24,560 nt of DNA, taken from the IMG/VR virus record IMGVR_UViG_2563366883_000007; one strand, written 5' to 3'. This DNA is from a virus (taxonomy: Duplodnaviria > Heunggongvirae > Uroviricota > Caudoviricetes). Below the pieces are notes generated by a model that saw only the letters and a program-made list of their open reading frames with translations, did no database searches and was not told where the DNA came from. The first letter of the stretch is position 1. Every line of letters begins with the position of its first letter. Of this stretch, positions 18,579 to 19,309 are shown piece by piece. Both the position numbers and the translations under genes were made by a program.

Positions 18579-18634
18579 GAATTAAACATCTTCCCTCCCC
18601 GGTAAATACAAATAAGGGCTGAACATCATCCCGA

Positions 18635-19159
18635 CTACCTCAGATCACCTAATAATATATCAAGATTATTTTGCGCATTAATGCTATTCGCCATTACTGT
18701 TGCTGCTTCTGGCAACTTTCCAAGAGCAATAAATATATTCTTAAGGCTGATTGGAATTGATGAACCATGCGGATCGCGCCACTCACCGCAAATTCTGTGA
18801 GTTTCATCACAAAGCCTGAACGCATCCCAACCTCCATATTGACCAAAAATTATGTCCATTGACTCTATTTCTGCGGGCGATAACTCCCCCAGCTCATCAA
18901 CAGAAGAAAATGTACGCCACATTTCAACCTTATGATCCGCTACATCAGATATCCATGATTCCCACGGACTGTACTCGTTTTCACTTCCATCCTTAACCAA
19001 AGAATATGTCTGCGATAAAACGGGTCCTTTGTTCATAGAGAAATAATGATCACCACTAATGGGAAAACCATACAACTCCATTGCTTTGCGGTCAGAGAGA
19101 TACATCAGCTTAATGAAACGCATAGATCCGCCATGTTTTTTCAGCAAATACGCTGCCAT
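18635..19159 (-). CDS. Panacea-domain (DUF4065, SocA/GepA-like) protein; antitoxin-like with no adjacent toxin gene
   Basis: N-terminal segment AAYLLKKHGGSMRFIKLMYLSDRKAMELYGFPISGDHYFSMNKGPVLSQTY follows the DUF4065 pattern (KLxKLLY ... GPV..xxY). 174 aa. Convergent with the ParB-fold gene. Confidence 0.6.
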   Translation of the reverse strand: MAAYLLKKHGGSMRFIKLMYLSDRKAMELYGFPISGDHYFSMNKGPVLSQTYSLVKDGSENEYSPWESWISDVADHKVEMWRTFSSVDELGELSPAEIESMDIIFGQYGGWDAFRLCDETHRICGEWRDPHGSSIPISLKNIFIALGKLPEAATVMANSINAQNNLDILLGDLR

Positions 19160-19309
19160 TTACGCAACTTTTTCTTCATTAAACATAAATCGGCTCTCTG
19201 TCTCACATGAAATACTCTTTCTGACTATATGTTAATAGCTCCGGTTATTACAGGTTAATGTGTGTTTATTTCTTAATCAGCCCCGCACTTCCGTACGGGG
19301 CCATTTCTG

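Follow-up and report, generated by a model that had tools for sequence, protein, structure and literature searches.

Why does an E. coli prophage carry a gene for a Panacea-domain antitoxin with no toxin gene at its side? We addressed this question for the window, i.e., the whole stretch of 24,560 nucleotides of DNA that was analysed. The solitary gene could have a role of its own, or it could once have belonged to a pair of the PanA-PanT type, the systems of a Panacea antitoxin (PanA) and a toxin (PanT) defined by Kurata et al. 2022, PNAS (PMC8832971).

The Panacea-domain gene and its neighbours

The gene in question, the orphan panA, appears in the ORF list as a 174-aa ORF at positions 18635-19159 on the minus strand. 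Its product matched the Pfam profile PF13274 (SocA_Panacea) with an E-value of 2.5e-19 and a score of 70.7 bits, well above the gathering score of 25.7; the match spans profile positions 2-112 of 113, thus a whole-length Panacea match. The Panacea signature noticed in the sequence-only reading was therefore confirmed by Pfam. The ORF also matched phrog_1281 (2e-38), and RefSeq names its identical copies ‘Panacea domain-containing protein’. The GPV motif, assigned to strand beta-2 and functionally important for PanA (Kurata et al. 2022, PMC8832971), is present in the window protein (G45-P46-V47), and its residues are invariant or nearly invariant in an alignment of 68 sequences. No match was found in searches of this protein against PDB sequences, PADLOC and NCBIfam. 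The window ORF is a real Panacea-domain antitoxin gene of an E. coli prophage, and the kind of gene is already known: it encodes a PanA antitoxin as found in PanAT systems with a T6 (MazF-like) toxin.

The window begins in the E. coli chromosome (rspAB, speG, ynfC-F) and runs into the right arm of a prophage inserted at ynfG. Located in this arm, all on the plus strand, are an antirepressor gene (14536-15171), an ibrA-like gene for a PAPS reductase/DUF3440 protein (15368-16594) and an ibrB-like gene for a protein with a ParB-like fold (16579-17223); the latter two were identified with Pfam and PHROG as well as by the RefSeq and GenBank annotation of strain EC2 and phage PhiR5_2. The ibrAB cassette (15368-17223, plus strand) now abuts the truncated panAT module and is convergent with panA. 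The ParB-fold gene on which panA had been said to converge is thus the ibrB homologue, and an insertion sequence lies in between. This element is IS1414 of the IS256 family (17256-18570, minus strand), recognized by the Pfam domain Transposase_mut (1e-118), by the naming of IS1414 in RefSeq hits and by its terminal repeats.

The target duplication of IS1414 is 8 bp long, GGGAATCG, with copies at 17248-17255 and 18571-18578. Strain EC2 (NZ_CP058571) has the same arm without the IS, and its uninterrupted empty site matches the duplication; there, ibrB and the Panacea gene converge over an 88-bp spacer. From the clean duplication, the empty site and the same gene content in IS-free genomes it follows that IS1414 took no partner gene with it, in agreement with what had been argued earlier from the intact duplications. 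Loss of a partner by way of IS1414 is ruled out on these grounds. An attempt to trace the 88-bp spacer through other ibrAB copies gave no result, as homology in E. coli ends at the ibrB stop codon.

The spacer between the panA stop and the end of IS1414 (18571-18634) measures 64 bp rather than the approximately 56 bp given earlier; it holds the right copy of the duplication (18571-18578) and a vestige of panT that is described below. On the upstream side the spacer is exactly 150 bp long (19160-19309), as had been estimated. Beyond it, on the same strand as panA and with panA directly downstream (a point absent from the sequence-only reading), lies the 3’ remnant of a gene for a giant polyvalent virion protein (19310-22516, minus strand), identified with Pfam and by a match to phrog_616 positions 1726-2793. 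The remnant amounts to the last 1068 codons of a 2793-aa protein and has domains LPD5, LPD1, MuF_C and LPD38. Homology between the window and EC2 ends at 22542; a deletion of about 12 kb internal to the window prophage cuts the giant gene. Directly after the giant-gene stop, between this gene and panA, there is a 10-bp hairpin with a GGAA loop and no U-tract (19279-19302, minus strand); RNA folding gave -20.5 kcal/mol with z = -5.2, and the hairpin shows no variation across an alignment of five loci. A scan of the spacer between the giant gene and panA for a consensus sigma-70 promoter found none.

These neighbours bear on a reading in which panA would be a stand-alone, GepA-like phage Panacea protein, or else a partner in cis of the giant protein (as immunity protein or chaperone) or of ibrAB. 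Wherever panA or its 5’ remnant occurs in this prophage lineage, the giant LPD38 gene precedes it, polyvalent proteins of the LPD38/MuF_C type can carry toxin domains, and full-length panA always co-occurs with ibrAB. Solitary Panacea genes also exist in general, since about half of all Panacea proteins are found outside TA-like loci. However, only in this lineage does the giant gene lie next to panA on the upstream side, and neither a giant-protein homologue nor an ibrAB homologue was found within 4-5 kb in any of more than 40 homologue loci, which share a T6 partner instead. Pfam detected no toxin domain in the C-terminus of the giant protein; its gene is parted from panA by the strong hairpin and, in the window, is itself reduced to a truncated piece. 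The ibrAB genes are convergent to panA, and other copies of ibrAB occur without it. We consider this reading very improbable as a whole. A functional link to the giant protein or to ibrAB was rejected, given that neither is near any homologue locus and that the giant gene is truncated.

The partner in related loci and the missing toxin gene

A tblastn search against phage genomes returned 10 records with a full-length PanA homologue. The set of loci used for comparison (n=43) contained PanA relatives with 35-70% identity, 39 of them from GTDB species genomes, where a 5-sequence alignment was used for the collection, along with phage and contig loci. Immediately downstream of the Panacea gene, at -4 to +33 nt from its stop, 41 of these 43 loci had an ORF of about 134 aa (121-144 aa), usually with an overlap of 4 nt; a few of the partner ORFs were truncated. 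The two loci with no partner were those of the most distant homologues. All 41 partners fell into one BLAST cluster and one HMM family, with E-values from 1e-28 to 1e-63.

The partner-bearing loci include P2-like, lambdoid and other prophages of E. coli, Salmonella, Yersinia, Klebsiella, Pseudomonas and Photorhabdus. For example, in the Yersinia phages YeP1-3 and the Klebsiella phage ST13-OXA48phi12.5 a 135-aa ORF follows panA at -4 or +3 nt. The partner is present in nine of the ten phage records, and the exception, PhiR5_2, shares its locus with the window. Pseudomonas phage Sirocco and the E. coli contig designated L014 also have the partner ORF, which had been left unannotated or uncalled there. 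In nearly all of its relatives the Panacea gene opens a tight two-gene operon, and so the window PanA is not naturally solitary. The earlier suggestion of a stand-alone, GepA-like protein did not survive this comparison, as the same T6 partner stands in 41 of 43 homologue loci and in 9 of 10 phage records.

The partner family is confidently predicted to have the MazF/Kid/CcdB toxin fold, and a MazF/PemK-like fold was likewise what the prediction gave for the partner. This predicted fold is the one of the MazF, PemK, Kid and CcdB toxins, yet at the sequence level the family had no NCBIfam or PADLOC model, nothing credible in Pfam and no relative in the PDB. The family also differs from the MazF/PemK/CcdB superfamily in its antidote, a Panacea antitoxin in place of MazE, PemI or CcdA. 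In a library of 1.84 billion proteins we counted 2169 representative clusters of the family at E<=1e-3. The cyclase-like PanT of phi52237 was tried as a candidate for the partner and rejected, with no match in the phage collection.

A link between this family and experiment comes from the Pseudomonas moraviensis pair of Kurata et al. (PMC8832971), in which PanT is toxic, PanA rescues growth and the two proteins form a complex. This PanT had no CDD hit, and HHpred led to the EndoA/PemK/MazF group; Dataset S1 of the same paper places the toxin in cluster T6, with the antitoxin gene preceding the toxin gene and an overlap of -1 or -4 (PMC8832971). Dataset S1 also lists in T6 the pair of Halomonas stevensii S18214 (PMC8832971); this pair, now under the name Vreelandella, is one of the loci of the present set (L037). 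The P. moraviensis PanA needed ten N-terminal residues restored, MIFSEQKVAQ (PMC8832971), and this sequence matches the conserved N-terminus of the window PanA family, which in the Sirocco homologue reads VIFSEQKVAQMAAYFL. The membership of L037 in T6 and the shared N-terminus place the window gene in the T6-partnered PanA clade; on sequence comparison, the window PanA groups with PanAs that neighbour T6 toxins, at 35-70% identity across 41 loci. The likeness of the clade to the P. moraviensis antitoxin covers the N-terminus M(I)FSEQKVAQMAAY, the KLMKLLYL(S/A)DR helix and the GPV and EW.DP motifs; the likeness of the relatives of the window gene to the P. moraviensis module covers the partner of about 134 aa with the predicted MazF fold, the antitoxin-toxin order and the -4/-1 overlap.

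The SocA-SocB pair of Caulobacter, the namesake of PF13274, shares its Pfam domain with the window PanA. SocA is a ClpXP adaptor for the toxin SocB, and SocB targets the DNA sliding clamp. Nothing at the window locus points to an adaptor mechanism of this type, and SocB belongs to cluster T10, a partner family other than T6 (Kurata et al., PMC8832971).

In the window itself, neither spacer flanking panA has an ORF of toxin size, and the same spacers are present in IS-free genomes; the earlier observation that there is no adjacent toxin ORF thus holds for the window and for the IS-free copies alike. The short ORFs in the spacers are an 8-codon remnant of the leader, a 12-codon ORF inside the hairpin and a 15-codon ORF (18582-18629) that reads through the panT vestige. 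A small toxin hidden in the spacers was rejected as a candidate, as just these three are there. We searched the six-frame translations of the window and of the 24.8-kb IS-free EC2 locus with an HMM of the T6 toxin, and the window and the same EC2 locus with three partner proteins by tblastn; neither search gave a match. As a positive control, L014 scored 5e-59 in the T6 search.

Could the cognate toxin have been overlooked, being a tiny peptide or RNA in the spacers or being encoded elsewhere in the genome? Many PanT toxins are small membrane peptides (PMC8832971), the window covers 24.5 kb of a genome, and the prophage has lost about 12 kb internally. Against this reading, the partner in the clade is uniformly a 134-aa T6 protein and not a peptide, and neither the window nor the EC2 prophage arm had a T6 match. 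We regard an overlooked cognate toxin as highly unlikely.

The closest full module belongs to L014, a P2-like prophage of E. coli; its PanA and the window PanA are 69% identical. At the DNA level, homology between this module and the window passes the panA stop, covers six codons of panT and then stops: identity is 36/57 at the end of panA, 15/20 up to position 18612 and then 15/60, the random level. The candidate vestige of panT (T6, MazF-like) occupies positions 18612-18629 on the minus strand; its sequence, ATGATGTTCAGCCCTTAT, translates as M(M)FSPY, compared to MSFTPY for the panT start of L014, ATGTCGTTCACCCCTTAT. This course of the homology argues that panT was deleted after its sixth codon. 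Being only 18-20 nt long, the stretch at 18612-18629 is suggestive, rather than proof, of a true vestige of panT and of a deletion junction after codon 6.

All in all, a T6 toxin gene with the -4/-1 overlap is absent from the window, which has the 18-nt stretch only. The arrangement by which Kurata et al. define a PanAT TA locus was found in 41 of 43 homologue loci and is lacking in the window. With the first six codons of the toxin apparently kept, the window has a broken ordinary TA pair. The sequence-only reading had mentioned that an overlooked adjacent toxin ORF would make the gene part of an ordinary pair; the putative six panT codons speak for such an ordinary origin, while no intact toxin ORF exists. 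No member of this prophage lineage was found in which a complete panAT follows the giant gene, hence the ancestral state with an intact module is inferred, not observed.

Lesions in the surviving antitoxin gene

That panA is damaged escaped the first reading. Comparison with relatives revealed two lesions, a change of Gln9 to a stop and a deletion of a KLM unit in the central helix. The ancestral start of panA (19160-19186, minus strand) is just upstream of the present ORF: an ATG at 19186-19184 opens the reading MFNEEKVA, closed by a TAA at 19162-19160, so that the upstream translation continues as MFNEEKVA-stop-MAAYLL. Codon 9 is thus TAA, compared to CAA (Gln) in O104:H4, OkiPb01683 and cM8a. 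In O104:H4 and further genomes the start of the ORF lies nine codons upstream of the present one, and the ancestral protein had about 186 aa. The N-terminus is at least 8 residues longer in 63 of 67 homologues, and 43 of 67 have Q at the position of codon 9. It is due to this nonsense codon that the 174-aa ORF restarts at Met10, at a UAAAUG junction.

The second lesion concerns a 9-nt unit, AAGCTGATG, encoding KLM, which is single in the window (19103-19111, minus strand); relatives have two copies, reading KLMKL(L/M)YLSDR. We observed one unit in the window, EC2, PhiR5_2, G1/2, UPEC-245U and NCTC9112, two in O104:H4 and OkiPb01683, and three in cM8a. With one copy of KLM instead of two, the central helix is three residues short. 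It reads IKLM---YLSDR in the window, a gap that none of the 67 homologues has, and the intact alpha-2 pattern KLxKLLYxxDR is not found. Helix alpha-2 is the best-conserved element of Panacea (Kurata et al., PMC8832971). Compared to the P. moraviensis PanAT, the window is therefore left with about six codons of panT and with a panA that misses its first 9 residues and 3 residues of the helix.

An AF2 model of the 174-aa PanA had a pLDDT of 92 and was helical with short strands, although AF2 is insensitive to lesions of this kind. The fold predicted for Panacea has a central helix with other helices around it and a small three-stranded sheet; a Foldseek search with the model found no match, and there is no solved Panacea structure for comparison. 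That the fold of the lesioned protein is still predicted with confidence is a point against reading the gene as a relic.

All seven full-length E. coli copies checked over this stretch had both lesions, the codon-9 TAA as well as the loss of KLM. The 174-aa ORF is the same in an eighth copy, that of JNEC-KY204, where an IS1 between the ORF and the giant gene breaks the stretch that was checked. A near-full-length gene, identical or nearly identical to the one in the window, was present in 18 of 5426 complete E. coli genomes, plus phage PhiR5_2. Further damage is visible in other copies: S1-CAM-02-A has an IS3 inside panA, and the protein database holds an internally deleted form of 148 aa as well as several of about 100 aa. 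The sister prophages that were inspected (e.g., O104:H4) mostly have only the start of the gene, about 41 codons that run on into unrelated sequence; the product is annotated as a hypothetical protein of 91 aa. Between the two E. coli alleles there are four non-synonymous changes and not a single synonymous one, a ratio which, with numbers this tiny, is compatible with neutrality and also with positive selection.

The surviving ORF could nevertheless have been kept for a purpose. The orphan PanA would then be a counter-defence or anti-addiction factor that neutralises in trans the T6 MazF-like PanT of other prophages of the host, for instance at P2-like hotspots or in lambdoid phages, and by doing so would prevent abortive infection or post-segregational killing. 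Two alleles, 18 genomes and a viable phage have the 174-codon ORF intact, and the four allele differences, all of them non-synonymous, cluster in the C-terminal 34 residues. Potential targets exist, as intact T6 PanAT modules occur in E. coli, with the type of phage Lys8385Vzw in 206 of 5426 complete genomes and the P2-like type in L014, at positions typical for accessory or defence cargo of prophages; among the genomes listed for the Lys8385Vzw type, 0 of 60 carried the orphan panA. Moreover, two substitutions suffice to relax the specificity of a PanA (Kurata et al., PMC8832971).

On the other side, the window PanA shares just 35% identity with the PanA of Lys8385Vzw and 69% with the L014 PanA, and the panT of the L014 type had no DNA match in the 5426 complete E. 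coli genomes. The window protein has lost nine conserved N-terminal residues and a turn of its central helix, three quarters of the gene is gone from most sister prophages, and the window PanA matched no PADLOC or anti-defence family. We thus consider both retention for counter-defence and the protection from abortive infection or post-segregational killing that would come with it unlikely. Slightly less likely still is the specific version in which a truncated PanA, made by re-initiation at UAAAUG, disarms a resident T6 PanAT and the C-terminal changes tune its specificity.

Orphan antitoxins, anti-addiction genes and phage-borne antitoxin mimics are known, such as chromosomal ccd acting against F-plasmid ccd and T4 Dmd acting against RnlA/LsoA. 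Like them, the window has a gene of antitoxin type on a mobile element without a toxin in cis, which in principle could act in trans on related toxins. The window PanA differs from the ccd and Dmd examples in having lesions in conserved parts and in being lost in sister lineages.

Origin of the orphan gene and its meaning

The reading we prefer is that panA is the orphaned antitoxin of a type II PanA-PanT (T6) module, the toxin gene of which was deleted, and that it is probably now a decaying relic. The surviving protein would be non-functional or weakly functional. The events may have taken the following order: toxin loss, then lesions, then insertion of the IS. In an ancestral 933W-like E. 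coli prophage, a panA-panT module would have come right after the giant virion-protein gene. The right arm, which is variable, would then have been rearranged; this would have deleted panT after codon 6 and introduced the ibrAB cassette or placed it alongside. Left without a toxin to neutralise, panA would have come under relaxed selection. It would then have acquired the change of Gln9 to a stop, with translation restarting at best at the adjacent Met10 via UAAAUG, and would have lost one 9-nt KLM repeat within the conserved central helix, presumably by repeat slippage. IS1414 would have landed in the spacer later, after the loss of panT, removing nothing.

We also note that the persistence of 174 open codons in two alleles, 18 complete genomes and the isolated phage PhiR5_2 speaks against the relic reading. 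The UAAAUG junction could support efficient re-initiation, thus the protein may well be made.

If the trans-acting role were true, the locus would be a case of phage counter-defence built from a captured antitoxin, with targets in roughly 4% of the complete genomes of E. coli. Independently of that, a large and unannotated family of proteins of about 134 aa is now connected with the predicted MazF fold and with T6, the PanT cluster of the validated pair. On the preferred reading, in which panA is a relic, the locus would document a stepwise erosion of PanAT at a recombination-prone prophage arm, starting with toxin loss and passing through a nonsense mutation and a deletion by repeat slippage to IS hits and, in sister lineages, truncation to about 40 codons. 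The locus would then be a cautionary case: a ‘solitary antitoxin’ of a prophage can be what is left of a normal TA pair, and it is the comparison with relatives that tells such a relic apart from a novel stand-alone function.

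Repeat variation and insertion sequences at panA

The 174-aa Panacea-domain antitoxin gene panA (18635-19159, minus strand) contains a 9-nt unit, AAGCTGATG, encoding KLM (19103-19111), which occurred in one, two or three copies among the E. coli prophages compared (the window and the loci L002, L003 and L005). This unit is an in-frame slippage hotspot in a conserved central helix of the protein.

Besides the repeat, insertion sequences were observed at the same small locus in three other E. coli prophages. An IS1 was located between panA and the upstream giant gene in JNEC-KY204, panA was interrupted by an IS3 in S1-CAM-02-A, and a panA remnant was adjoined by IS1414 in OkiPb01683. 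These insertions are independent events, and the panA-bearing prophage arm looks like a hotspot for insertion sequences and recombination.

The giant gene, the prophage deletion and the ibrA/ibrB pair

The giant gene, on the same strand as panA, codes for a polyvalent virion protein. In the reference strain EC2 (NZ_CP058571), which carries the same prophage arm without IS1414, the protein has 2793 aa with the domains LPD5, LPD1, MuF_C and LPD38, while in the window the gene is cut down to its final 1068 codons (region 19310-24560, remnant at 19310-22516, minus strand). Homology between the window and EC2 breaks at position 22542 and picks up again about 12 kb further on in the EC2 prophage; therefore, the window prophage has undergone an internal deletion. 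The missing genes include hok/gef and lom-like genes, and the window prophage is probably defective.

Directly 3' of the giant-gene stop, we found a hairpin (19279-19302, minus strand; -20.5 kcal/mol) that is conserved without any change, with a 10-bp stem closed by a GGAA tetraloop and no U-tract. This structure may stabilise the transcript at its 3' end or act as a partial terminator.

The same window carries an ibrA-like gene (PAPS reductase/DUF3440) and an ibrB-like gene (ParB-like) at 15368-17223, the two overlapping by 16 nt. The BrxP and DndC models of PADLOC matched the window IbrA weakly. Copies of ibrB in about 800 other E. coli genomes were only ~83% identical to the window ibrB, and its exact allele was found only where full-length panA was also present.

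Unannotated panT genes and the position of the module

The MazF-like toxin partner of panA relatives, panT (cluster T6; Kurata et al. 2022), was present as an unannotated or uncalled ORF in Pseudomonas phage Sirocco (OR683410, locus positions 1486-1884), whose record instead lists two different small ORFs overlapping or adjoining it, as well as in the closest full E. coli module (GCA_018047185, locus positions 5543-5944). Although T6 comprises more than 2000 representative clusters, neither Pfam nor NCBIfam contains a model for this family.

In both P2-like phages, Sirocco (Peduoviridae) and the E. coli P2-like prophage, the intact PanA-T6 module is situated with the replication-gene side on one flank and the portal gene on the other, a site known as a hotspot for anti-phage cargo. 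This position is a hint that T6 PanAT could be a defence system carried by prophages.
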